A stretch of 64,000 bases of DNA from Candidatus Daviesbacteria bacterium (lineage in GTDB: Bacteria > Patescibacteriota > Microgenomatia > Daviesbacterales > UBA10151), in NCBI GenBank assembly GCA_016187035.1, contig JACPKL010000010.1, forward strand, positions 94,616-158,615, written 5' to 3'. The notes under the pieces were generated by a model that was given only the letters and a program-made list of their open reading frames with translations, was not told where the DNA came from and did no database searches. A program made the position numbers and the translations under genes. Shown here in pieces: positions 9,115 to 56,954 of this stretch (its first letter is position 1; the number at the start of each line of letters is the position of its first letter).

Positions 9115-9128
9115 ATAAGAAAAGGGTA

Positions 9129-11507
9129 TTAACGGTCAAATCCGCCTCTACCACCGCGACCTCCGCGGTCTCTTCCGCCTCTACCAAATCCACCAGTTCT
9201 GCCTCTCCCTCCAAACCTATCCTGGGTTCTATCAAAGGACCCGCCACTTCTACCGCCTCCACTGCCAAAGCTTGGACGATTACCAAATCCTCCACTTCTG
9301 GGTCTACCCGCTTCGCCAAAGCGAGGCGAATCGCCAAAAGAGGAACGAGATCTAAAACCTCCGCCTTCTCTCGGTCTAAAATTTCCACCACCAGTAGGCC
9401 TCCCCTCGGTCTCTGGTTTAATATTTGCCCCAAAAAGCATTGATAAACCAATCTTTCCGTCAGGAGAAACATCAGTTACCCTAACCTTTACCTCTTGACC
9501 TTCTAAGACTACATCTTCTGGTCTGTTAACATGTCCAGGTGCCATTTGGGAAATATGCACCAACCCATCTTTGCCAGGAGCAATTTCTACAAACGCCCCA
9601 AACGGAGCAAGTCGCACGACCCTACCACTCAACTCATCTCCTACATTAAAGCTTTTAAACATACCATGAATAGAAGCAATTGCTGCATCAACTCCTTCGG
9701 GATTGACGCCTGAGATCATCACTGTCCCATCATCCTCGATATCAATTTGAGCGCCTGTTTTAGAAATAATTGAGTTAATAGTTTTTCCACCTGTGCCGAT
9801 TAAAAGCCCTATCTCTTCTGGTTTGATATGCAAAATTTCAACTCTTGGGGCATGAGGAGATAAAGGCCCTGCACTAGGAATAACTTTATCCATTTGTTCT
9901 AAAAGTTGTATCCTGGCTTTGCCACCCATATTAAGGGCTTGCTCAATTATGTCAAAGGTTAAACCTTCCAGCTTAGTATCCATCTGAATGGCAGTAATTC
10001 CATTTTTAGTACCTGCTATTTTAAAATCCATCTCTCCGTAAAAGTCTTCCACTGCCCTCATATCTGTTACTACCTGAGTTTTTTTCTCATCGGAAAACAG
10101 CCCCAATGCAATTCCAGCAACAGGCTCTATCAGAGGTACACCAGCATTCAGTAAAGCTAAAGTGGTTCCACAAACTGCAGCCATAGAAGTTGAGGCATTG
10201 GCTGCTAATACTTCAGATACTACTCTGATTGCGTATGGGAATTGATCTTCTTTTGGAACAACTGCTATGATGGCTTTTTCAGCCAAAGCACCATGACCAA
10301 TATCACGTCTGTTAGGAGCAGCCAGTCTTTTAACCTCACCTACAGAAAATGGATTAATACTCATATTATAATGGTGCATAAACCTTTTTTGTCTTTCCCC
10401 TTCCATCCCATCCAAAGTTTGCTTCAAAGAAGGAGCCCCCAGTGTTACAACAGATAAAACTTGAGTGTCTCCTCTTTGGAAAAGTGCGCTGCCATGAGTT
10501 CTTGGCAAAATTCCAACTTCTATCTGAATTGGCCTAATCTCATCCATAACTCTCCCATCTACTCTTTTACCTTTTTCCAAAACCTCTTTCTGTAAAATTT
10601 CTTTGGCAACTTTGTCAAAAATGCCTGATATAACTTGTTCTGTTAAAGCTTCTGCGTATTGGGTAGCAAGCTCTTTTTTAATCAAATCACCAGTTGCCTC
10701 ATGCCAAGGGTGCTCATTATCAAACAAAGCCTTTTCGATTCGTTCTTTGGTAATTTTAGATACTTCTTTAAGTAACGCCTCTTCAATTTCCTCCTCTAGA
10801 TGGGAGTAGGTCTGTTTCGTTTTACCAGCAACTTTCCCAAATTCTTCAATCAAAGAAATAATTGGTTGGGCTTGTGCATAAGCTTCTTTAATCCCTGCAA
10901 AAACTAACTCGTCTTTAACCTGATTAGCCCCTGTTTCTATCATGACAACTTTGTCTTTGGTAGAAGCTACTAAAAGATCCATATTAAGATGTTCTATCTC
11001 ATTAATAGTGGGATTGACTACTAAACTGCCTTCTCTTTCACCGATTCTTACTCCAGCAATTGGGCCTTTCCAAGGAATAGAAGAGATAGATAAAGCAGCT
11101 GATGCACCGATTAAACCAACAATATCAGGATCGTTTGCCTGATCTACAGATAATACAGTCAAAATTACTTGCACCTCATGCATTTTAAAATCTTTAGGAA
11201 AAAGCGGGCGGATGGAACGATCCACTAATCTGCCTGTTAAAACAGCTTCATCAGTGGGTCTAGTCTCTCTTTTGATAAATTTTGAGGAAGAAATTCTACC
11301 TCCAGCATAATGTTTTTCTACATACTCAACTGAGAGAGGAAAATAACCAATATCTTCTTTTAAAGGTTGTGTGGCAACTGTTGCTAAAATTACAGTTTCA
11401 CCCCAAGACACTAAAACAGAAGCATCTGCTTGCAGAGCTAACTTGCCTGTTTCTAATTTCAACTTACGACCATTAAGATCGATTTCTTTTACTATAACTT
11501 TGTTCAT
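9129..11507 (-). CDS. pnp: polyribonucleotide nucleotidyltransferase (PNPase) with a C-terminal Arg/Gly-rich (RGG) tail
   Basis: Two RNase PH domains, KH and S1 domains, then an RGG/FGG tail of about 95 aa encoded by GC-rich DNA at 9129-9420. Confidence 0.95.
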   Translation of the reverse strand: MNKVIVKEIDLNGRKLKLETGKLALQADASVLVSWGETVILATVATQPLKEDIGYFPLSVEYVEKHYAGGRISSSKFIKRETRPTDEAVLTGRLVDRSIRPLFPKDFKMHEVQVILTVLSVDQANDPDIVGLIGASAALSISSIPWKGPIAGVRIGEREGSLVVNPTINEIEHLNMDLLVASTKDKVVMIETGANQVKDELVFAGIKEAYAQAQPIISLIEEFGKVAGKTKQTYSHLEEEIEEALLKEVSKITKERIEKALFDNEHPWHEATGDLIKKELATQYAEALTEQVISGIFDKVAKEILQKEVLEKGKRVDGRVMDEIRPIQIEVGILPRTHGSALFQRGDTQVLSVVTLGAPSLKQTLDGMEGERQKRFMHHYNMSINPFSVGEVKRLAAPNRRDIGHGALAEKAIIAVVPKEDQFPYAIRVVSEVLAANASTSMAAVCGTTLALLNAGVPLIEPVAGIALGLFSDEKKTQVVTDMRAVEDFYGEMDFKIAGTKNGITAIQMDTKLEGLTFDIIEQALNMGGKARIQLLEQMDKVIPSAGPLSPHAPRVEILHIKPEEIGLLIGTGGKTINSIISKTGAQIDIEDDGTVMISGVNPEGVDAAIASIHGMFKSFNVGDELSGRVVRLAPFGAFVEIAPGKDGLVHISQMAPGHVNRPEDVVLEGQEVKVRVTDVSPDGKIGLSMLFGANIKPETEGRPTGGGNFRPREGGGFRSRSSFGDSPRFGEAGRPRSGGFGNRPSFGSGGGRSGGSFDRTQDRFGGRGRTGGFGRGGRDRGGRGGRGGFDR

Positions 11508-24225: not shown

Positions 24226-24259
24226 TTTGTCATCCCCAACTTGATTGGGGATCCATATA
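24226..24259 (-). repeat. palindromic repeat copy 1 immediately 5' of the dnaJ start codon
   Basis: tttgtcatccccaacttgattggggatccatata, forming the hairpin atcccca/tggggat. Confidence 0.6.
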
Positions 24260-24824: not shown

Positions 24825-24858
24825 TTTGTCATCCCCAATCTAATCGGGATCCATATTA
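24825..24858 (-). repeat. palindromic repeat copy 2 immediately 5' of the methyltransferase start codon
   Basis: tttgtcatccccaatctaatcgggatccatatta, nearly identical to copy 1. Confidence 0.6.
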
Positions 24859-25140
24859 TACGATTTTTGAATATAAATCTTTCCATTTTGGATTATTTTT
24901 TTCTATTAGTTCTATTTTCCATTGTCTATTCCATTGCTTGAGTCTTTTCTCTCTTAATATTGCTTGATTACTATCTTCATAAAGTTCAAAGTAAACCAAA
25001 TTATGGATCTGGTATTTACTTGTAAAACCCTCTACTAAATCATTTTTATGTTCGTAAATTCGTCTTATTAAATTATCAGTTACCCCAATATATAGTGTTC
25101 CATTTCTTCTACTTGCGAGTATATAAACGAAGTATTGCAT
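24856..25140 (-). CDS. GIY-YIG nuclease-family protein (UPF0213-like)
   Basis: YFVYILASRRNGTLYIGVTDNLIRRIYEH GIY-YIG core, 94 aa. Confidence 0.8.
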   Translation of the reverse strand: MQYFVYILASRRNGTLYIGVTDNLIRRIYEHKNDLVEGFTSKYQIHNLVYFELYEDSNQAILREKRLKQWNRQWKIELIEKNNPKWKDLYSKIV

Positions 25141-25145
25141 TTATA

Positions 25146-25172
25146 GATTCCCGCTTTCGCGGGAATGACAAA
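25146..25172 (-). repeat. related minimal hairpin (gtcattcccgcgaaagcgggaatc on the minus strand) between the dnaK stop and the GIY-YIG start
   Basis: Perfect GC-rich hairpin with the same GTCAT...GGGAAT-type termini. Confidence 0.5.
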
Positions 25173-43859: not shown

Positions 43860-44120
43860 ATGAGAGAATTGGAAACCACCCTGACGCAGAAGGGTCAAGT
43901 GACAATCCCCGTGGAGATCCGTTCCCGCCTGGGCCTGAAACCGAAAGATAAGGTGCGGTTTGAAGTGGAGGGGGATGAAGTCAAGATCAAGCCCGCGCCC
44001 TCGCGCATTGCCCGCCACTTTGGGGCGGTGGCTGTATCTGGAAAGTCGCTGGATTGGCGAGTCGAGCGGAAGGCGTTTGAGGAAGGCGTGGCCGAGGAGG
44101 TAGTGGCCGAGGATCGGTGA
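43860..44120 (+). CDS. vapB: AbrB/MazE (SpoVT-AbrB) family antitoxin VapB
   Basis: TLTQKGQVTIPVEIRSRLGLKPKDKVRFEVEGDEVKIKP swapped-hairpin motif in GC-rich DNA. Overlaps vapC by 4 bp. Confidence 0.75.
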   Translation: MRELETTLTQKGQVTIPVEIRSRLGLKPKDKVRFEVEGDEVKIKPAPSRIARHFGAVAVSGKSLDWRVERKAFEEGVAEEVVAEDR

Positions 44121-44542
44121 TGTCTATGCCACGCTTCCTGGACACCAATATCCTGCTGCGCTACTTCACAGGCAGTGGTAGCGAGAAGGCCCTGGCAGCC
44201 AAAGTACTGCTTGAGCGCATAGAACAGAGCGAGGAGAAGGTAGTCATCTCCGTACTGGTGGTGTTTGAGACAATTTTCACCCTACAGCGCACCTACAAGG
44301 TGCCCAAGGTCAAGATCCGCGAGATGGTCGGCGATGTGATCGCCCTGCGCGGTGTCCAACTCACGGGCAAACGGCTATGCTTGCAAGCCTTGGATCTCTA
44401 TGTGGGAAAAAACATCTCCTTCGCCGACGCCTACAACGTCATCTACATGCAGTCGCAGCAGTTCTCGGAGATCTACAGCTGGGATACCGACTTTGACAGG
44501 ATCGAGGGCATTACTCGCATTGAGCCAGCCCAGGATATGTAA
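44117..44542 (+). CDS. vapC: PIN-domain toxin VapC
   Basis: FLDTNILLRYF N-terminal PIN motif and conserved acidic residues, in GC-rich DNA. Confidence 0.8.
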   Translation: MMSMPRFLDTNILLRYFTGSGSEKALAAKVLLERIEQSEEKVVISVLVVFETIFTLQRTYKVPKVKIREMVGDVIALRGVQLTGKRLCLQALDLYVGKNISFADAYNVIYMQSQQFSEIYSWDTDFDRIEGITRIEPAQDM

Positions 44543-44647: not shown

Positions 44648-46651
44648 ATGCCCACTTCGCAAAAGCTCAGTGTAAACTTTCTTGATGACTTAAATTCCAT
44701 TCAACAAAAAGCGGTTAAAACAACTGAGGGACCGGTATTAATTTTGGCCGGGGCTGGCTCCGGCAAAACCAGGGTGTTAACTTACCGCGTAGCTTATTTG
44801 ATTGCTGAGAAAAAGATTCCTCCTGAAAATATCCTTTGCCTGACCTTCACAAATAAAGCTGCTGGAGAAATGATGGATCGTATTTTAAAACTTTTGGACC
44901 ACCAGCTACCAGCTACTAACTACCAACTACCTATTATGGGCACTTTTCATTCTTTTTGTGCCAAAATCCTAAGACGTGATGGCAAAGCCTTAGGATTGCC
45001 TCCTGGCTTTACCGTATATGATGAATCCGATGCATTAGATGCTATAAAAGAAGCTATGGGTAATTTGAATATTCCGACCCAAAAAACTTCTCCTTTTTCA
45101 GTAAGACACACTATTTCTTCAGCTAAAAATGAATTAATTTCTGCACTTGAATACCCACAATATGCCAGAGGGTATTTCCAGGAAACTGTAGCTAAAATTT
45201 ATTTAGAATATCAGAAGATTTTAGAGAAAAATAAAGCCCTGGATTTTGATGACCTGCTGCTGACAACTATTAAGCTGTTTCAAACAGAACCAGCTATATT
45301 GACCCGCTATCAAATTCAATTCCGTTATATCTTAATAGATGAATACCAGGATACCAACCCTGCTCAATATCTGATTTCAAAATATTTAGCAAACAGGCAT
45401 AAAAATATTTGTGTAGTCGGGGATGCTTCACAATCTGTGTATTCTTTCAGAGGAGCAGATTTCAGAAACATTGTTAATTTTCAAAAAGACTACCCAAACG
45501 CTAAAGTTTTTAACCTGGAGCAAAATTACCGCTCTACCCAAAATATCCTGGATGCAGCCCATGCTGTAATTTCTAAAAATAAATTACATCCTATTTTGAA
45601 ACTTTGGACAAATAAAAATGGGGGAGAAAAAATTGAAATAGTGGAGGTAAGAAATGAAATTGAGGAAGCTCTATTTATCTTGTCCACCATAGATCACCTC
45701 CGAGGTGTAAGCGCATTTTTTCACCTCGGAGGTGTAGCCGTGCTTTATAGAACTAATGCCCAATCCCGTGCTTTAGAAGAACAATTTTTAAAATCTGGTA
45801 TCCCTTATAAATTAGTTGGTGGAGTAAGCTTTTACGAGAGAAGAGAGATTAAAGATATTTTATCCTACCTTAGGTTACTGCAAAATCCTAAGGACTCTGT
45901 ATCTTTAAAAAGAGCAGAAAAAATTGGCAAAGGAAGACTGGGAAAAGTTTTAGGATTCTCAGCGTCATTGCGGGGAATCGGACCGAGCGAAGCCAAGTCA
46001 GACTTGGTTTCGCCAAGTCTGACTTGGCGAAGCGAGGGAGATCGCTTGCAAAATGCGAAGCATTTTGACAAGGGCTCGAGTGAAACGAGCGGCCCTTCAG
46101 GCCTCGGAATGACCACAATCGAGCTATTAGATCAACTTCTAGCAAAAACAGGCTATTTGGCTTATTTGGATGATGGAACAGATGAAGGAGGGGGCAGGGT
46201 GGAAAATGTTAAAGAACTTAGGTCGGTAGCAGAAGAGTTTCCTAGTTTAGTCCAATTTTTAGAGAACGTGGCTTTGGTGGAAAATGGTTTTCTGCCTTCT
46301 TCTGAAAAAAATATTCAGCAAGACGTAGTAACTTTAATGACCCTGCATTCTGCTAAAGGCTTGGAGTTTCCGACAGTTTTTATGGTAGGAATGGAGGAAG
46401 GACTATTCCCCCATTCACGCTCTATGCTAAATCCTCAGGAACTTGAAGAGGAAAGAAGGCTTTGTTATGTGGGCATCACCAGGGCAAAAGAAAAATTATA
46501 TTTAACTTACAGCAGGCAAAGATTATATTTTGGCACCAGATCTAATAATTTAGTTTCCCGCTTTTTATCTGATATTCCCCAAGACTTAATTTCCTCTAAC
46601 ACAAACTTCAAAAACCAAGATCAAGATAATGAAGATTGGTTAAACACATGA
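44648..46651 (+). CDS. uvrD: ATP-dependent DNA helicase UvrD/PcrA, carrying an in-frame palindromic insert
   Basis: AGAGSGKTRVLT Walker A and UvrD motifs throughout. Insert at about 45965-46113. Confidence 0.9.
   Translation: MPTSQKLSVNFLDDLNSIQQKAVKTTEGPVLILAGAGSGKTRVLTYRVAYLIAEKKIPPENILCLTFTNKAAGEMMDRILKLLDHQLPATNYQLPIMGTFHSFCAKILRRDGKALGLPPGFTVYDESDALDAIKEAMGNLNIPTQKTSPFSVRHTISSAKNELISALEYPQYARGYFQETVAKIYLEYQKILEKNKALDFDDLLLTTIKLFQTEPAILTRYQIQFRYILIDEYQDTNPAQYLISKYLANRHKNICVVGDASQSVYSFRGADFRNIVNFQKDYPNAKVFNLEQNYRSTQNILDAAHAVISKNKLHPILKLWTNKNGGEKIEIVEVRNEIEEALFILSTIDHLRGVSAFFHLGGVAVLYRTNAQSRALEEQFLKSGIPYKLVGGVSFYERREIKDILSYLRLLQNPKDSVSLKRAEKIGKGRLGKVLGFSASLRGIGPSEAKSDLVSPSLTWRSEGDRLQNAKHFDKGSSETSGPSGLGMTTIELLDQLLAKTGYLAYLDDGTDEGGGRVENVKELRSVAEEFPSLVQFLENVALVENGFLPSSEKNIQQDVVTLMTLHSAKGLEFPTVFMVGMEEGLFPHSRSMLNPQELEEERRLCYVGITRAKEKLYLTYSRQRLYFGTRSNNLVSRFLSDIPQDLISSNTNFKNQDQDNEDWLNT
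45965..46113 (+). repeat. GC-rich palindromic element (GTCATTGCGGGG...CCTCGGAATGAC termini) inserted in-frame in uvrD
   Basis: Imperfect 12-bp terminal inverted repeats, internal palindromes ccaagtcagacttgg x2, and GC far above the local value. The ORF stays open across it. Confidence 0.65.
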
Positions 46652-50622: not shown

Positions 50623-51705
50623 ATGGATTTAAGGCCAATAGCTGACAAACAAAAATCTCAATACAACAAATTAGTTACTCATGTTATCCAGTCATGGGAG
50701 TGGGGAGAATTTAGAAAATCATTAGGGTTACCGGTTTTAAGATATGGGCTTTTTGAAGCTAACCAACTTACTGCAGCTTTTCAACTGACTTTGCACAAAA
50801 TACCTTTTACTAACAAATATGCCGGCTATTTACCAAAAGGCCCTGCTTCTGATTCGCAACTAGCTGAGGCTTTGGAAAAGATTGGCAGAAAACATAATTG
50901 CGCTTTTATCAAGCTGGAACCTAATATCCCCGTCATTGCGAGCGAAGCGAAGCAATCTTCTACCTTAACTAATAAGATTGCCACAGTACGTTCAGTTGAC
51001 ATGAACGTACCTCGTAATGACAAATTAGTAGATAAAAGTTTTATTCCTTCTCCAAAACCATTATTTACTAAATATAATTTTGTTTTGGATCTAACACAAT
51101 CAGAAGAGCAAATTTTAAAAAACATGCATTCAAAAACCAGATACAATATTAAACTAGCTCAAAAACATGAAGTAAAAGTTGAAGAAAAAACTGATGATGA
51201 AGCTTTTAAGATTTATTTAAAATTATATTTTGAAACAACTAAAAGGCAAGGTTACCATGGACATAATGAGTATTATCACCAAAAGGTTTGGGAAACTTTA
51301 AAAAAAACAGGAATGGCCAGATTACTGATTGCCTCATACAAAAACGAGCCTTTAACTGCCTGGATGCTTTTGAATTTCAAAGACACCCTTTATTACCCTT
51401 ATGGCGGATCTAACAAAAACCATCCGGAAGTAATGGCCAGTAACTTGATAGCCTGGGAAGCTATAACTTTAGGTAAAAAGCTGAAGCTTAAAAAGTTTGA
51501 TATGTGGGGAGCTTTGGGACCTGATGCTAATTCCAAAGATCCCTGGTATGGATTTCATAGATTTAAAGCTGGTTTCGGAGGAAAACTCATAGAATATATC
51601 GGCACTTATGATTTAGTCTTTGACTGGCCACTTTACTGGATGTTTACTTTAATAGATAAATTAACACCACTAAAAGTCTTTCTGTTAAAATTACTTGGAA
51701 AATAG
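50623..51705 (+). CDS. FemAB-family peptidoglycan interpeptide-bridge peptidyltransferase, carrying an in-frame palindromic insert
   Basis: FemAB/MurM-like N-terminus (HVIQSWEWGEF) and a GNAT-like C-terminal half. Insert at 50932-51021. Confidence 0.7.
   Translation: MDLRPIADKQKSQYNKLVTHVIQSWEWGEFRKSLGLPVLRYGLFEANQLTAAFQLTLHKIPFTNKYAGYLPKGPASDSQLAEALEKIGRKHNCAFIKLEPNIPVIASEAKQSSTLTNKIATVRSVDMNVPRNDKLVDKSFIPSPKPLFTKYNFVLDLTQSEEQILKNMHSKTRYNIKLAQKHEVKVEEKTDDEAFKIYLKLYFETTKRQGYHGHNEYYHQKVWETLKKTGMARLLIASYKNEPLTAWMLLNFKDTLYYPYGGSNKNHPEVMASNLIAWEAITLGKKLKLKKFDMWGALGPDANSKDPWYGFHRFKAGFGGKLIEYIGTYDLVFDWPLYWMFTLIDKLTPLKVFLLKLLGK
50932..51021 (+). repeat. 90-bp GC-rich palindromic element with perfect 11-bp terminal inverted repeats GTCATTGCGAG / CTCGTAATGAC, in-frame in the FemAB-like CDS
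   Basis: Shares its ends, core (gcgaagcaatcttc...aataagattgccac) and translation frame with the sbcD copy. Confidence 0.7.
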
Positions 51706-51777: not shown

Positions 51778-52284
51778 ATGGACACTACACTAATCATCTC
51801 CGGAGGTATTTTGATAGGCTGCATTATATCCCTATCCTGGTTTGCTGGCTCTGATGCACCCTTTGTACCCACCAAAATGGATCATATCAGAAAAATCCTC
51901 AAGCTTGCCGGAGTTAAAAAAGGAAAAAGATTTTATGAGCTAGGATCTGGTGATGGCAGGGTTGTCCTTGCTGCTGCCAAACTGGGTGCTTATGCCGTTG
52001 GCATAGAACAATCCTGGATTAGGATTTTATATTCCAAACAATTAGCTTTACACCTTCCAGGTATCAACGTAAAGTTCTATCATGGAAATTTATTTTCCAA
52101 ATCCTATAAAGATGCTGATATTATTTATATTTACCTGCTTCATAAAGGTGTTAAGAAACTGGAGGAAAAGCTTAAAAAGGAATTAAAAAAAGGTGCTATA
52201 GTAATTACCCAAACTTATCATTTCCCAAACTGGAGACCATTTAAAAAAGAGGGGGATTTTTGGTTGTACAAACAAACATTTTAG
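51778..52284 (+). CDS. small class I methyltransferase-like protein
   Basis: YELGSGDGRVVLAAAKLGAYAVGIE Rossmann motif I. Confidence 0.5.
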   Translation: MDTTLIISGGILIGCIISLSWFAGSDAPFVPTKMDHIRKILKLAGVKKGKRFYELGSGDGRVVLAAAKLGAYAVGIEQSWIRILYSKQLALHLPGINVKFYHGNLFSKSYKDADIIYIYLLHKGVKKLEEKLKKELKKGAIVITQTYHFPNWRPFKKEGDFWLYKQTF

Positions 52285-53468
52285 TGTACGATCGTACAAG
52301 CAATTGGTACGGCTTTTGTAATCTGCTCAAGTCTCTCGTTTCTAATTGTATACAAATCCTCTATTCTGACCCCACCAAACATAGGAATATAAATCCCAGG
52401 CTCTATGGAAAAAACCATTCCTGTCTTTAAAACTTCCTTGCTTTTGGGTGAAAGGGAAGGATGTTCATGAACTTCAAGTCCTATCCCATGACCTAAGGAG
52501 TGAGGTAAATTCGGATAACCCTTAGACTTAATATAATCCCTGGCTACTTTGTCTACATCTGCTGACTGCACTTGCTTAGTAGAATTAATATAGTCTACTG
52601 CTTTCTTTTGTGCTTCTAAAGCTACCTCGTACATTTCCTGTTGTTTCCTGATAGGTTTTCCAAAAAATACAGTCCTGGTCATATCAGAACAATAATTTTC
52701 CCATTTTACTCCGAAATCGAGAAGGACGATTAGTCCTTCTCGTCCTGAGCGAGACTTCGACGGTGAGCTCAGTCGAACCGCGGAGCGAGTCGCACGTTCG
52801 ACAAGCTCAGTGCGACCCTGAGCGACAGTCGAATGGGTCGAAAGACCCAAAACAGTTTGTCCAGTTTGATGATGCGGTATAGCAGAATTTTTACCAAAAG
52901 CAACTATAGCTGGAAAAGAAAACTCTCCTCCTTGCCCTTTAATAAAATCCTCCAATTTATTAGCAATTTCTTTTTCAGTTACACCTATTTTAATCTGTTT
53001 TAAAATATACTCAAAAGCCAAATCCCCTATCTTACAAGCCTTTTTTATTTTCTTTATTTCATCAGGAGTTTTTATGCTCCTATTTAATTTAAAATGTTTT
53101 GTGGTTTTAAAATGCTTTTTTACTAATTTTGCCTCTAGTACAGTTAAATTATCCTCCTCTATTCCTAAAATTTTAATTTGATTTTTTAGCTTTTTAAACA
53201 ACTGTTCCGTTGGTGTTTGATGACTTCTTTCAAAAAGTTCAAAATGTGGCACTTGTTTTTTTATGGCATGGGTATATCTGCCATCAGTAATAATATATTG
53301 AAGATTATTTCCTATTATTAAGTAGGCTTCTCTTTCTTCCTTTGAAAAATTAGCATAACCTGTCAGATAAGTAATATTAGAAACAGAGGAAATAAAAACT
53401 GCATCTAATTTTCTTTCTTTAAGATTTTCCCTGATATTTTTTAATCTGGTTACAAACATGCCCCACAT
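52281..53468 (-). CDS. pepP: Xaa-Pro aminopeptidase (M24B), carrying a GC-rich in-frame insert
   Basis: Creatinase-like N-domain with M24 metal ligands (HGIGLEVHE) at the C-terminus. GC-rich insert at about 52745-52855. Confidence 0.8.
   Translation of the reverse strand: MWGMFVTRLKNIRENLKERKLDAVFISSVSNITYLTGYANFSKEEREAYLIIGNNLQYIITDGRYTHAIKKQVPHFELFERSHQTPTEQLFKKLKNQIKILGIEEDNLTVLEAKLVKKHFKTTKHFKLNRSIKTPDEIKKIKKACKIGDLAFEYILKQIKIGVTEKEIANKLEDFIKGQGGEFSFPAIVAFGKNSAIPHHQTGQTVLGLSTHSTVAQGRTELVERATRSAVRLSSPSKSRSGREGLIVLLDFGVKWENYCSDMTRTVFFGKPIRKQQEMYEVALEAQKKAVDYINSTKQVQSADVDKVARDYIKSKGYPNLPHSLGHGIGLEVHEHPSLSPKSKEVLKTGMVFSIEPGIYIPMFGGVRIEDLYTIRNERLEQITKAVPIACTIVH
52285..52298. repeat. TGTACGATCGTACA palindrome at a convergent gene junction
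   Basis: Perfect 14-bp palindrome between the 51778..52284 (+) and pepP (-) stops. Confidence 0.6.
52745..52855 (-). repeat. GC-rich palindromic in-frame insert within pepP, related to the grpE patch by the shared 11-mer gcgagacttcg
   Basis: Multiple internal inverted repeats (gctcagg/cctgagc, gggtctttcgaccc). Encodes HSTVAQGRTELVERATRSAVRLSSPSKSRSGREG. Confidence 0.55.
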
Positions 53469-53488: not shown

Positions 53489-54733
53489 TTGATGAAACTT
53501 CTTCATTTTTCTGATCTTCATATTGGGATGGAAAATTATGCTAAATTGGATCCTGAAACAGGATTATCCTCAAGACTTTTGGACTTTTTTAAAACTTTTG
53601 ATTTTATTGTTGAAACTGCTTTTACAGAAGATGTTGATGCTGTTATTTTTGCTGGAGATGCTTATAAAACCCGTGACCCAAACCCTACCCAGCAAAGAGG
53701 TTTTGGTGAAAGAATTAAAAAACTAGCCAAAAAAATCCCGGTAATATTGGTCGTGGGAAACCACGATACTCCTAATGCTGACGGCAAAGCTAATACTTTG
53801 GATATATATTCTGCTTTGGAAATAGAAAATGTTTTGGTATCAAGAAAACCTGAGTACTTAGAAATCTCCACTAAATCAGGCTCCTTACAAATTATCACTC
53901 TTCCCTGGCTGCATAAAAATGACTACAAAACAATCGGGGATAAACTGCAACTGCAGTATGACAAAATCAAACCTTCCTCTCCTGCTATACTTTTATCACA
54001 TGCTGAAGTAGAAGGAGCAACATATGGGTCTGAAAAAGGCCTGGCAATTGCAAATGATGTGACTATTCCCCTGCCTCTTTTACAGGATAAAAGAATATCT
54101 TATGCGGCTTTAGGCCATATCCACAAACATCAAGTTTTATCAAAAAACCCTTTGGTTGTTTACTGCGGCTCTCCCCAAAGGATTGATTTCGGAGAAGAAA
54201 AGGAAGAAAAAGGCATATGCCTTGTGGAAATAAGTCCCTCTTTGTCATTGCGAGCGACAGCGAAGCAATCTTCCACCTCCAATAATAAGATTGCCACGTC
54301 CTCGTCTACGGCGACTCCTCGCAATGACGGTTTTACCGCCTCTTTTCAATTTATCCCTACCAATGCCAGAAAATTTTTAACCATTATCGTTAATTTAAAA
54401 AACGGACAAGAAAACCCTACTCAAACCATTCTGGAAGAAATTCAAAATTATGATATTAAAGACAAGATAGTCAGGCTGATTATAAACATCCCTGCTGATT
54501 GTAATAAAGAAATCCATATGGACAAAATTAAAAAAGCTTTATCCGCCTCTCACCTGATTGCCGGTATTTCCAGAAATGTGGAAAGAGTAGAAAGGGTGAA
54601 GTTTGATGGAGGGAAAGAAGTGGAAACTTTAACACCAGTTATGGCTTTAAGAAAATATTTTGAGTTTAAAAAATACCCTCTTCAAAAACAAAAAGAGTTG
54701 GAAAAATACGCTGCCCAGCTGTTAGATAGTTAA
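53489..54733 (+). CDS. sbcD: exonuclease SbcD (Mre11-like), carrying an in-frame palindromic insert
   Basis: LLHFSDLHIG phosphoesterase motif I. Insert at 54244-54328. Confidence 0.85.
   Translation: MMKLLHFSDLHIGMENYAKLDPETGLSSRLLDFFKTFDFIVETAFTEDVDAVIFAGDAYKTRDPNPTQQRGFGERIKKLAKKIPVILVVGNHDTPNADGKANTLDIYSALEIENVLVSRKPEYLEISTKSGSLQIITLPWLHKNDYKTIGDKLQLQYDKIKPSSPAILLSHAEVEGATYGSEKGLAIANDVTIPLPLLQDKRISYAALGHIHKHQVLSKNPLVVYCGSPQRIDFGEEKEEKGICLVEISPSLSLRATAKQSSTSNNKIATSSSTATPRNDGFTASFQFIPTNARKFLTIIVNLKNGQENPTQTILEEIQNYDIKDKIVRLIINIPADCNKEIHMDKIKKALSASHLIAGISRNVERVERVKFDGGKEVETLTPVMALRKYFEFKKYPLQKQKELEKYAAQLLDS
54244..54328 (+). repeat. 85-bp GC-rich palindromic element with 11-bp TIRs GTCATTGCGAG / CTCGCAATGAC, within sbcD
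   Basis: Encodes ...RATAKQSSTSNNKIATSSSTATPRND..., paralleling the FemAB copy (...SEAKQSSTLTNKIAT...PRND...). Confidence 0.7.
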
Positions 54734-54734
54734 T

Positions 54735-56954
54735 ATGATACCTACTAAACTTAAACTATCCAATTTCACATCATATGGGGAAAACCCTCCGGAGTTGGAC
54801 TTTACCAAATTTAAACTGGCTGCTATTTCAGGCCTTAACGGAGCCGGTAAATCCTCTCTTTTGGATGCCATTACCTGGTGTGTCTGGGGCACTTCTCGGG
54901 CTGGAGATTCTGCAGATTCTCTAATACATCTTGGAAAAGACAGTATGCAGGTTGAATTTTCCTTTAAACTGGACACCCATACATACACTGTCAAACGAAA
55001 ACGTTCCAAAAAAGGTGGTGGTTCAACTAGTCTGGAGTTATGGTCAAACTCTCATAACTTGACTGAAGGCACTATCAAAACAACCCAAGAGAAAATCATC
55101 CAAACCCTACATTTAACTTTTGAAACTTTTACCAATTCCTCTTACCTTAGGCAAGGACATGCAGATGAATTTACTACTAAAGGACCAACTGACCGAAAAA
55201 GAATCCTAGCAGACATTTTAGGATTGGACCATTATGATAAGTTAGAAGAAAAGGCTAAAGAAAAAGCAAAAGAGTCTCAAACCAAATTACAACTTTTAGA
55301 TTATCAGCTGCTGGAAATTGAAGCAGAGCTTTCTCAGAAAGAAGAAAGAGAAAAATCCTTATTCTTAAAAGAAACAGAGGCAAAAAAAGTGGAAGCAGAG
55401 CTTCTAGAAGTTGAAAGATTAATTAAAACTATCCAAGAGGAACATCAAACTATATATTCTACTGTTAAATCTTTTGCAGAAAAAAGGATCCAAATAGAGA
55501 AAGTAAAAAAAGAGTTGGAAGATACTAATTTACAAATTTCCCTTAAAGAAAAGGCAAAACAGGAATTTCAAGACGTCTTAGAACAAAAACAAGTGATAGA
55601 AACCAATTATCAAAAGTTGCAAAGACTTGAGCAGGAAAAGAGTGAATTAGAGATAAAACGGTCGAGCCTTTTAAAGGTTAGGGACGAACTGGCAGCCGTC
55701 CAAAAAATTTTAATCAGCAGAGAAGAAAAAAGACAGATCACTATCAAAAACTTAGAAATAGAAATAAAAAAATTAGAAACTGAGAACGAACAATTACAAA
55801 ACCAAAACAATCATCTGAAATCCCACAAAAATACTTGCCCTACTTGTAACCAAACAATCGGTAAAGATAGAAATGAGCAAATTTCATCTAAAAATAAAGC
55901 ATCTATAGATAAAAATGAGCTTCGAATTACAGAGTTGCAGGAAAAATCACAAAAATACCAATCTGTCGTATTACCTGAGCAGATTCAAGCTAGTGATTTA
56001 GAAAAACAGGTTAAGATTTTAGACAACCAGACAAAACACTATCCCCAAATCAAGGATCAAATCTTTCAGTTAGATAAATATCAAAATCTATATATCAAAC
56101 TTCAACAGGCAGAGATCGGGGTCAAAACCCACCAAGAAGCTATCCTGGATTTAAAGAGGATCTACGACAGCAAAGATCAACACTTAAAAGACGGGCAAAA
56201 GGAATTAGAAGGATTAGAAGGATTAGAAAATAAATTAAAAGAAGTCCAAAAAAAATTATTCTCTAAGGAAGCTGTTAAGATGGAATTATCTCGGAAAGCA
56301 TTAGAGTTAAGCAGCATTGTTGGTGAAGCTAAGCAATTAGTTTCCCAATCTGAGCAACTGGAAAAATTGGCTAGCCAAAAACAGGCAGATAAACATAATT
56401 TACAAAAGGAAAAAGAGATTTTTGAGGAGTTATCTTTGGCTTTTGGCAAAAAAGGCATCCAGGCAATGATTATTGAAGCAGCAATTCCGGAAATTGAGGA
56501 GGAGACAAATCAGTTGTTAGGAAGATTGACAGAAGACAGAATGAAAGTTACTTTGCAGACTCAAAGAGAAGCCAAGACTAAAATAGCTGGCGGAGAAAAA
56601 GGGATTGTGGAGACTTTGGATATTATTATTTCTGATGAGATGGGAGAAAGAGCTTATGAGCTATATAGTGGCGGCGAGGCTTTCAGGGTAAATTTTGCTA
56701 TCAGGCTGGCTATCTCTAAATTATTAACTCACAGGGCTGGGGCCAAACTGCAGTTTTTAGTAATTGATGAAGGGTTTGGCTCACAAGATACACCAGGCAG
56801 GGCAAAGCTGGTTGAAGCCATAGATACCATTAAAGATGATTTTGAAAAAATTTTGGTTATCACCCATATTGAGGAACTTAAAGAAGAATTCCCGGTCAGG
56901 ATTGAGGTGTCTAAAAATTCTATGGGTTCCACTTTTGAACTAATAGGTATTTAA
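54735..56954 (+). CDS. sbcC: exonuclease SbcC (Rad50-like ATPase)
   Basis: N-terminal Walker A GLNGAGKSSLLDAI, a long coiled coil with a CPTC zinc hook, and a C-terminal signature/Walker B. Confidence 0.85.
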   Translation: MIPTKLKLSNFTSYGENPPELDFTKFKLAAISGLNGAGKSSLLDAITWCVWGTSRAGDSADSLIHLGKDSMQVEFSFKLDTHTYTVKRKRSKKGGGSTSLELWSNSHNLTEGTIKTTQEKIIQTLHLTFETFTNSSYLRQGHADEFTTKGPTDRKRILADILGLDHYDKLEEKAKEKAKESQTKLQLLDYQLLEIEAELSQKEEREKSLFLKETEAKKVEAELLEVERLIKTIQEEHQTIYSTVKSFAEKRIQIEKVKKELEDTNLQISLKEKAKQEFQDVLEQKQVIETNYQKLQRLEQEKSELEIKRSSLLKVRDELAAVQKILISREEKRQITIKNLEIEIKKLETENEQLQNQNNHLKSHKNTCPTCNQTIGKDRNEQISSKNKASIDKNELRITELQEKSQKYQSVVLPEQIQASDLEKQVKILDNQTKHYPQIKDQIFQLDKYQNLYIKLQQAEIGVKTHQEAILDLKRIYDSKDQHLKDGQKELEGLEGLENKLKEVQKKLFSKEAVKMELSRKALELSSIVGEAKQLVSQSEQLEKLASQKQADKHNLQKEKEIFEELSLAFGKKGIQAMIIEAAIPEIEEETNQLLGRLTEDRMKVTLQTQREAKTKIAGGEKGIVETLDIIISDEMGERAYELYSGGEAFRVNFAIRLAISKLLTHRAGAKLQFLVIDEGFGSQDTPGRAKLVEAIDTIKDDFEKILVITHIEELKEEFPVRIEVSKNSMGSTFELIGI

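Follow-up and report, generated by a model that had tools for sequence, protein, structure and literature searches.

Rickettsia palindromic elements (RPEs) are dispersed palindromic repeats that lie in frame within conserved housekeeping genes, where they add surface residues compatible with the fold of the host protein (Ogata et al., 2000; reviewed in PMC10969869). The CGTC-tagged repetitive extragenic palindromes (CGTC-REPs) are a class in which an unpaired CGTC tag (or TGTC or CCTC) is accompanied by a stem of 8–9 bp starting with AT, a loop of 4–5 nt and a short tail, the units occurring mostly as head-to-head dimers (Di Nocera, De Gregorio and Rocco, 2013, PMC3733652). Intragenic dimers of this class encode 20–30 residues and are found in excess in the repair genes uvrABCD, recBCD and polA; CGTC-1 is the same as dRS3 of Neisseria and RPE-6 of Rickettsia, CGTC-4 is the same as RPE-4, and no dedicated transposase was known to the authors (PMC3733652). 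Hairpins named NTS and SRM frame the ssn genes, which encode small single-domain GIY-YIG proteins (cd10448) that cut single-stranded DNA (ssDNA) beside these hairpins; the repeats are intergenic and modulate transformation (Chenal et al., 2025, PMC11893778). [quoted passage not shown] Here we consider an 85-bp palindromic element within sbcD, the gene of an Mre11-family nuclease, in a stretch of 64,000 nucleotides of a Candidatus Daviesbacteria genome (GCA_016187035.1, contig JACPKL010000010.1, positions 94,616–158,615), which we call the window. We think it likely that this segment is a dispersed dimer of tagged hairpins lodged in a turn of SbcD, that it is translated as about 29–30 tolerated residues with no function of their own, and that SbcD-SbcC remains functional.

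A dimer of tagged hairpins and its family

Positions 54244–54328 of the plus strand hold the element, in which two tagged hairpin units stand head to head as a dimer and the ends form a perfect inverted repeat of 11 bp. Its full sequence, GTCATTGCGAGCGACAGCGAAGCAATCTTCCACCTCCAATAATAAGATTGCCACGTCCTCGTCTACGGCGACTCCTCGCAATGAC, starts with GTCATTGCGAG and finishes with CTCGCAATGAC; counted from tag to tag (TGTC...GACG) it extends over 54243–54329, that is 87 bp or 29 codons, the left tag being TGTC at 54243–54246 and the right tag, on the minus strand, CGTC at 54329–54326. The left arm (54244–54270, plus strand) reads GTCATTGC-GA-GCGACAGC-GAA-GCAATC and contains, beside the tag and an internal loop, the basal stem ATTGC/GCAAT and a mini-hairpin GCGA(C)AGC, while the right arm (54289–54328), read on the minus strand, has GTCATTGC-GA, then a variable segment of 21 nt, then GTG-GCAATC. 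Between them lies an AT-rich central spacer, TTCCACCTCCAATAATAA (54271–54288, plus strand), whose outer bases are paired in the fold that is predicted. With its 5 bp the basal stem starts with AT, and the segments inside it, 8 nt in the left arm and 21 nt in the right, each form a small hairpin of their own. As RNA the element has a predicted folding energy of −32.6 kcal/mol (z −4.3 against shuffles) and as ssDNA one of −18.6 kcal/mol (z −5.0), with none of 200 shuffles equally stable. The 11-mer end, with up to one mismatch allowed, occurs seven times in the window against 0.37 expected, a number that none of 100 shuffled sequences reached.

The family was followed in 79 loci around SbcD orthologues of other species, 54 of them from Daviesbacteria or other Microgenomates and the others from Chloroflexota and further lineages of CPR, so that the window and these loci, collected around sbcD, amount to 1.33 Mb. 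In this set there are 40 dimers of the form GTCAT...ATGAC with a length of up to 160 bp, while a null scan of the reversed sequence, taking in every length up to 400 bp, gave nine candidates. In 39 of the 40, GTCAT is preceded by C or T and ATGAC is followed by A or G, from which we take the true ends of the element to be YGTC...GACR. A direct repeat of the kind left by target-site duplication flanks none of the 40, and the related loci gave no close empty site that would define a junction. In 60 arms of this type, drawn from the window and the related loci, three parts do not change, namely the tag, the small internal loop and the basal stem ATTGC/GCAAT, and the distal segments vary (for example GCGAAGC, GGGCACGGAGTGCCC, GCGAACGAAGTTCGC and CCCGCCAACTGGCGGG). 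The distal closing stem nevertheless averages 2.6 bp, compared with 1.4 bp in shuffles and with no more than 1.9 bp in any of 200 shuffle sets; hairpin potential is thus kept where sequence is not, which argues that structure rather than peptide sequence is conserved in the arms.

Two further members lie close by in the window. A second copy of 90 bp (50932–51021, plus strand) is in frame in a FemAB-family gene (50623–51705), where it reads VIASEAKQS...PRND and adds 30 residues, and a related divergent dimer of 150 bp (45964–46113, plus strand), with ends GTCATTGCGGG and CTCGGAATGAC, is in frame in a UvrD/PcrA helicase gene (44648–46651). A profile of the GTCATTGCGAG family, for which the sbcD element gives the top-ranking matches (nhmmer E 7e-17), matches along its full length in 12 related loci and in part, with a single arm, in five more, two of which are Chloroflexota loci. 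The exact 26-nt arm also occurs in 105 viral contigs of IMG/VR, which shows that the family is not limited to cellular genomes; a BLAST of the element against collections of plasmids and phages from cultured organisms gave no match. In two IMG/VR contigs, arrays of GTCATTGCGAG-type units stand beside phage genes (L160:241–587 and L161:2505–2853).

Set beside the described systems, the family shares with the CGTC-REPs the YGTC tag, the stem starting with AT, the head-to-head dimer, the presence of many copies and in-frame dimers of about 20–30 residues; the published host phyla of CGTC-REPs include neither CPR nor Chloroflexota, whereas the sbcD family occurs in both. A GTCAT head, a hairpin and an ATC tail are common to NTS, dRS3, SRM and the sbcD element. 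Unlike NTS and SRM, however, the sbcD arms stand beside no Ssn gene that we could find, and they are coding and in frame rather than intergenic. The likeness to RPEs lies in a palindromic, dispersed element in frame in conserved genes of a small-genome bacterium, with extra surface residues that suit the fold; the differences are the CPR host, the arm sequence (ATTGCGAG...) and the bipartite arm, and the link to RPEs runs through the literature only (RPE-4 and RPE-6 being CGTC families). Bacterial MITEs such as Correia/NEMIS, ERIC and Nezha are short multicopy sequences with terminal inverted repeats, and they occasionally form in-frame fusions with host genes. The sbcD element is likewise short, multicopy, non-coding in origin and bounded by perfect 11-bp terminal inverted repeats, but unlike MITEs it has no visible target-site duplication and no visible parent insertion sequence with a DDE transposase, and its ends are hairpin units. 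REPINs, in turn, are doublets of GTAG-tagged hairpins, essentially extragenic, which are thought to be mobilised in trans as ssDNA by a single-copy RAYT (HUH/Y1, IS200/IS605-like) gene framed by repeats. The sbcD element resembles them as an inverted doublet of tagged hairpins that folds into one long hairpin, and departs from them in its tag (YGTC, not GTAG), in its intragenic position and in the class of its candidate enzyme, which would be GIY-YIG and not an HUH/Y1 transposase. Judging from these comparisons, the element is the CPR counterpart of the Rickettsia RPEs and the CGTC-REPs, with a new type of arm.

The insert in the SbcD turn and in other proteins

The open reading frame (ORF) of sbcD runs uninterrupted over 53489–54733 on the plus strand, encoding 414 residues from a TTG start or 413 from the ATG at 53492, and the 413-residue product, which has the Pfam Metallophos domain, is 100% identical to the NCBI entry 'exonuclease SbcCD subunit D [Candidatus Daviesbacteria bacterium]'. 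An intact sbcC follows immediately (54735–56954, plus strand) and encodes a Rad50-like protein of 739 residues with one CxxC hook motif at residue 368. The element adds 29–31 residues to SbcD; the insert peptide, SLSLRATAKQSSTSNNKIATSSSTATPRNDG, takes up residues 250–280 of the 413-residue protein. The earlier note, made from the letters of this DNA, had reported a palindrome-ended segment of 85 bp, a copy of a repeated element, within an sbcD frame that continues to a normal C-terminus and into sbcC, and had quoted the same peptide; all of this agrees with what we find, and the further copies in femAB and uvrD bear out that the element is repeated. The family of the element and its relatives, and the Ssn-type cassette described below, had escaped that note. 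It had also placed the insert between nuclease motif regions, and there we must disagree. The five phosphoesterase motifs are all present (SDLH at residue 7, GDAY at 55, GNHD at 89, SHAE at 169 and GHIH at 208, together residues 7–211) and all lie upstream of the insert, which therefore follows the catalytic core and does not interrupt the motifs.

Structural mapping gives a consistent picture. An AlphaFold2 model of SbcD, built on an alignment of 55 sequences and with a mean predicted local distance difference test score (pLDDT) of 77, has the Mre11/SbcD fold, its top Foldseek matches being Mre11 of Thermotoga maritima (3qg5, 3tho) and SbcD of Escherichia coli (6s6v). In the model the insert falls between strands 242–250 and 282–290, in the turn of a β-hairpin past the catalytic core, at a site that a profile alignment equates with about residue 250–253 of T. 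maritima Mre11, and the pLDDT is below 50 at residues 255–274, so that the insert is predicted to be disordered. Position in a turn and predicted disorder both fit the loop insertion that the earlier note had proposed to be tolerated, as does the comparison with SbcD of other genomes. In an alignment of 120 orthologues, each sharing about 70–80% identity with the window protein, large inserts are found at no internal site but this turn: it most commonly has 5–7 residues (for example PKPGISS), while 43 of the 120 carry other in-frame inserts exactly there, with at least six extra residues. These inserts come from at least seven families (SLRATAKQS...PRND, VIPAKAGI...KSGMT, RHSELDSES...EFGMT, SLSRMRDS...PQNDN, MDNGQW...SIFN, ESVKGK...HASRF and STSQVARIKPARSVE), and at the DNA level they include tagged dimers with differing stems, such as GTCATTCCCGCGG..., GTCATTCTGAAC... 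and ...CCTCAGGATGAC. One related locus (L002) retains a decayed remnant, only the right half of a family-A element. We infer that the insert is tolerated without harm.

A length of 85 bp is not a multiple of three, and the sbcD frame is kept because flanking bases count, the distance from tag to tag being 87 bp; the element has no stop in the sbcD frame, and the frame downstream of it is preserved. The window and two related loci (L001 and L003) have a family-A element at the same place and in the same codon phase, with lengths of 85, 97 and 103 bp that differ by multiples of three, as would be expected if a single insertion took place long ago and evolved as coding sequence thereafter. Among the 40 dimers, 25 lie within long ORFs that read through them without a break and the other 15 in true intergenic gaps. 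No gene is split by any of them, and this lack of split genes is the independent part of the evidence on frame. Intragenic dimers have 2.6 of their six frames open, compared with 1.6 for intergenic dimers and 1.66 for random DNA of this genome. The remainder of the GTCAT-to-ATGAC length after division by three was considered as a test of translation and dropped; inside ORFs remainders of 0, 1 and 2 are found in 13, 5 and 2 cases, since flanking bases compensate for lengths that are not multiples of three.

Occupied loops are not peculiar to SbcD. FemAB has one site, after about residue 103, where 11 of 46 orthologues carry inserts of differing families, and UvrD has one region, after about residues 438–467, where about 10 of 36 do; footprints such as IIANDN and IKSGMT are seen at both. 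Within single genomes, different loops tend toward one repeat family (GTCATTGCG-type at three sites in the window, GTCATCCTGAG-type at two in L024, GTCATTCCCGCG-type at two in L032), which hints at lineage-specific bursts or gene conversion. Several of the same loops hold in-frame tandem repeats of the forms (CAGTCGT)n, (AATTTC)n and (CCACCAT)n, in sbcD of L009, L024, L028, L004, L053, L016 and L005 and in femAB of L022 and L033; the 7-mer CAGTCGT, which contains the CGTC tag, recurs at two different genes. Plain tandem repeats in these places suggest that the loops simply tolerate extra length. In the window, the ORF of an M24 Xaa-Pro peptidase (52281–53468) has a GC-rich in-frame insert of 34 residues, GLSTHSTVAQGRTELVERATRSAVRLSSPSKSRS, at about 52730–52850 (minus strand), which lacks GTCAT ends, folds strongly as ssDNA (z −4.9) and is replaced by GPESSS or GPSTRFARS in orthologues; this looks like a palindromic repeat of another family with the same behaviour. 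Tagged dimers also stand between genes of other species, in the metG-tatD gap of four loci (L001:6120, L015:15248, L018:9767, L024:15183) and in the sbcD-sbcC gap of three (L018:5570, L019:11203, L043:3950), whereas the window has no dimer in either gap. An intein of about 363 residues (CLPPDT...VHN|S) follows VGDASQ in UvrD of two other Daviesbacteria (L015:543–3650, L019:3–2486) and is absent from UvrD of the window.

The Ssn cassette and competing explanations

The window also contains a gene of the Ssn type, for a single-domain GIY-YIG nuclease of 94 residues (24856–25140, minus strand; Pfam E 3.8e-15). The residues Y6, Y17 and E64 are present, at the positions that were mutated in the Ssn enzyme of Neisseria (Chenal et al., 2025, PMC11893778). 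Upstream of it on the same strand is the hairpin TGTCATTCCCGCGAAAGCGGGAATCTAT (25143–25170, minus strand), which, with an 8-bp stem and a GAAA loop, has the stem and loop dimensions of a CGTC-REP, matches the SRM pattern HGTCWYN(0-2)YYVSBRHN(0-5)WNVSBRGN(0-2)RNCYNB and nearly matches the Neisseria NTS. Downstream is a second tagged unit in inverted orientation, GTCATCCCCAATCTAATCGGGATCCAT (24828–24854, plus strand), so that on the ssn strand the gene is followed by ...ATGGATCCCGATTAGATTGGGGATGAC and the two units frame a GTCAT...ATGAC cassette of 342 bp (24828–25169). A solitary tagged hairpin, GTCATCCCCAACTTGATTGGGGATCCAT (24229–24256, plus strand), lies between dnaJ and a methyltransferase gene. 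A syntenic copy of the cassette region 24828–25170 is present in the metagenome locus L080, with 77% nucleotide identity over 3.4 kb. At least 487 relatives were found in metagenomes, and of the 72 homologues with enough flanking sequence 63% have an upstream hairpin, 58% a downstream one and 38% both, figures similar to the published 71% and 42% (PMC11893778). The sbcD-loop inserts of two related loci, L032 and L073, have the same two types of arm as the window cassette, joined by a short spacer with no gene; from their arm sequences they look like gene-less derivatives of an ssn-type cassette. By comparison, then, there is evidence that the CC-type family, to which the hairpins around ssn belong, is mobile.

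For the element in sbcD itself, we propose the following course of events. The element would have entered, or have been copied into, the codons of the β-hairpin turn just past the catalytic core of SbcD, and would be transcribed and translated as about 29–30 hydrophilic, disordered surface residues, with SbcD-SbcC still functional; it would persist because the turn tolerates extra length. Movement would most likely involve a single-stranded hairpin form and an enzyme supplied in trans, resembling the Ssn-type GIY-YIG ssDNA nucleases framed by sister hairpins, as in this window; how the element spreads, and why these loops are hot spots, we infer from the comparisons above.

Several observations weigh against this explanation, or against parts of it. 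The arms in sbcD, with their 5-bp basal stem, internal loop and variable distal hairpin, do not have the stem and loop of a CGTC-REP, and neither of them, nor the left arm of the femAB copy, fits the SRM pattern, which in the whole window is matched only at 25143–25170 on the minus strand. Since the element shares the plan of these repeats and fails both descriptions, we class it as a new family of a kind already described. The link to an Ssn-like enzyme faces further difficulties: of 45 hairpins found upstream of Ssn genes not one belongs to the GTCATTGCGAG type, and in 303 kb of Ssn loci the GTCATTGCGAG motif turns up just twice. Around 109 GTCATTGCGAG-type hairpins in 80 viral loci (700 kb) there is no ORF of the Ssn family, and clustering of the neighbouring ORFs there revealed no recurrent gene, only phage structural proteins and spurious high-GC ORFs. 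No cognate enzyme for the family of the sbcD element was found in these searches. The observation that all 25 intragenic dimers lie in open ORFs is partly circular, as an ORF had to span the element to be counted, and translation of the SbcD insert, very probable as we consider it, is read from the frame. The nearest SbcD orthologue is 78% identical, and when the elements are removed in silico the flanks are colinear in other loci at 65–75% identity, too diverged to fix junctions or target duplications. In addition, a neighbour-joining tree of the 120 SbcD proteins with the loop masked is star-like, all sequences being roughly 70–80% identical, so that independent gains of inserts are not rigorously countable. 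An autonomous, gene-carrying version of the form GTCATTGCGAG-N(270-330)-CTCGCAATGAC was also sought; its two matches in viral contigs are both repeat arrays with no nuclease gene.

Let us suppose instead that an occupied loop acts as a landing pad, where tagged hairpins are drawn to, or replaced at, a site that already holds a hairpin. A nuclease would cut beside the resident hairpin and the break would be repaired from another copy, and the same codon position would be reused by targeting rather than by tolerance. The concentration of at least seven families in one SbcD turn, with no other internal site holding a large insert, could be read in this way, as could the same pattern at one FemAB site and in one UvrD region, the composite or nested inserts seen in L003, L046 and P0068, and the tendency of one genome's sites to share a family. 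The same loops, however, hold untagged palindromes (MDNGQW...SIFN and ESVKGK...) and tandem repeats, for which a general tolerance of length fits better, and no flank is conserved beyond the tag; on balance we find such targeting rather unlikely. An extension of the idea, in which the tagged dimers of CPR are gene-less partners of Ssn cassettes, Ssn acts in a transposase-like manner on ssDNA hairpins besides modulating transformation and the few hot loops of conserved proteins are landing pads for successive elements, strikes us as a doubtful proposition at present.

The remaining explanations concern the fate of the insert once in place, and tolerance of an insert with no function of its own accounts better for what is seen at this locus. 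It is improbable, in our estimation, that the insert has been co-opted, either as a loop that alters SbcCD activity or as an mRNA hairpin that tunes how sbcD and sbcC are expressed. Repair genes (sbcD and uvrD) hold two of the window's three GTCAT...ATGAC dimers, an excess in such genes is noted in the literature, and the insert has apparently been kept across species about 75–78% identical in SbcD (the window, L001, L003, P0003 and P0007); mutator-like states brought about by repeats in repair genes were a speculation of Di Nocera et al. (PMC3733652). Most orthologues, on the other hand, lack an insert and others have unrelated sequences at the site, the insert is predicted to be disordered, femAB and the M24 peptidase gene have been struck likewise, and enrichment in repair genes is not assessable in a set of loci gathered around sbcD. 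An insertion of 30 residues close to the catalytic domain might also be thought to have crippled SbcD or made sbcD a pseudogene, an outcome the earlier note had named as a possible refutation. This is highly improbable, as the frame is undisrupted at full length with all Mre11 motifs intact, sbcC is intact, 43 of the 120 orthologues keep intact ORFs with inserts at the same site, and that site is a turn between two strands. The note had raised post-transcriptional removal as well, and the strong hairpin that brings the two ends of the element together may recall a mini-intron or an intein-like element, excised after transcription or after translation. We find hardly any reason to believe in such excision: a scan of the window with Rfam gave no match of any family, and hence no intron or ribozyme; 85 nt, or about 30 residues, falls far short of the size of an intein or of a group I or II intron, with no intein motifs (Cys/Ser...HN) present; and with splicing one should meet intragenic copies that break the frame or bear stops, of which there is none among the 40 dimers.

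Other features of the window and implications

Two features of the window stand apart from the repeats. Just upstream of uvrD, at 43860–44539, is a pair of a MazE/AbrB-type antitoxin and a PIN-domain toxin with a GC content of about 0.67, the background being 0.36; the pair is probably an island of recent acquisition. The ORF of polynucleotide phosphorylase (9129–11507) has a long Arg/Gly-rich (RGG/GGF) C-terminal tail at 9117–9420 (minus strand), which accounts for the local GC spike there. A tRNA scan of the window found none.

The principle of in-frame palindromic repeats is already known from Rickettsia and other bacteria; what is new here is the host group, the reuse of the same loops by many families and the co-occurrence of an Ssn cassette. 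With these copies, in-frame insertions of the RPE/CGTC-REP type now reach the Candidate Phyla Radiation and Chloroflexota, and they bring a new, bipartite-hairpin type of arm. For annotation, small spurious ORFs (...LRFARND) and the seemingly odd stretches of low complexity that CPR proteins contain become explicable by a class of repeats and need not be taken for errors or novel domains. For protein engineering, the comparison of 120 orthologues is a natural map of sites where SbcD (Mre11), and likewise FemAB and UvrD, take 20–40 extra residues. An Ssn cassette and gene-less dimers built on one plan in a single window offer a concrete system for the mobility of such repeats, a question that the Ssn paper of 2025 left open. 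If the dimers were indeed partners of Ssn cassettes, doubtful as we hold this to be, repair and cell-wall enzymes of these bacteria would undergo a continuous turnover of short coding segments.

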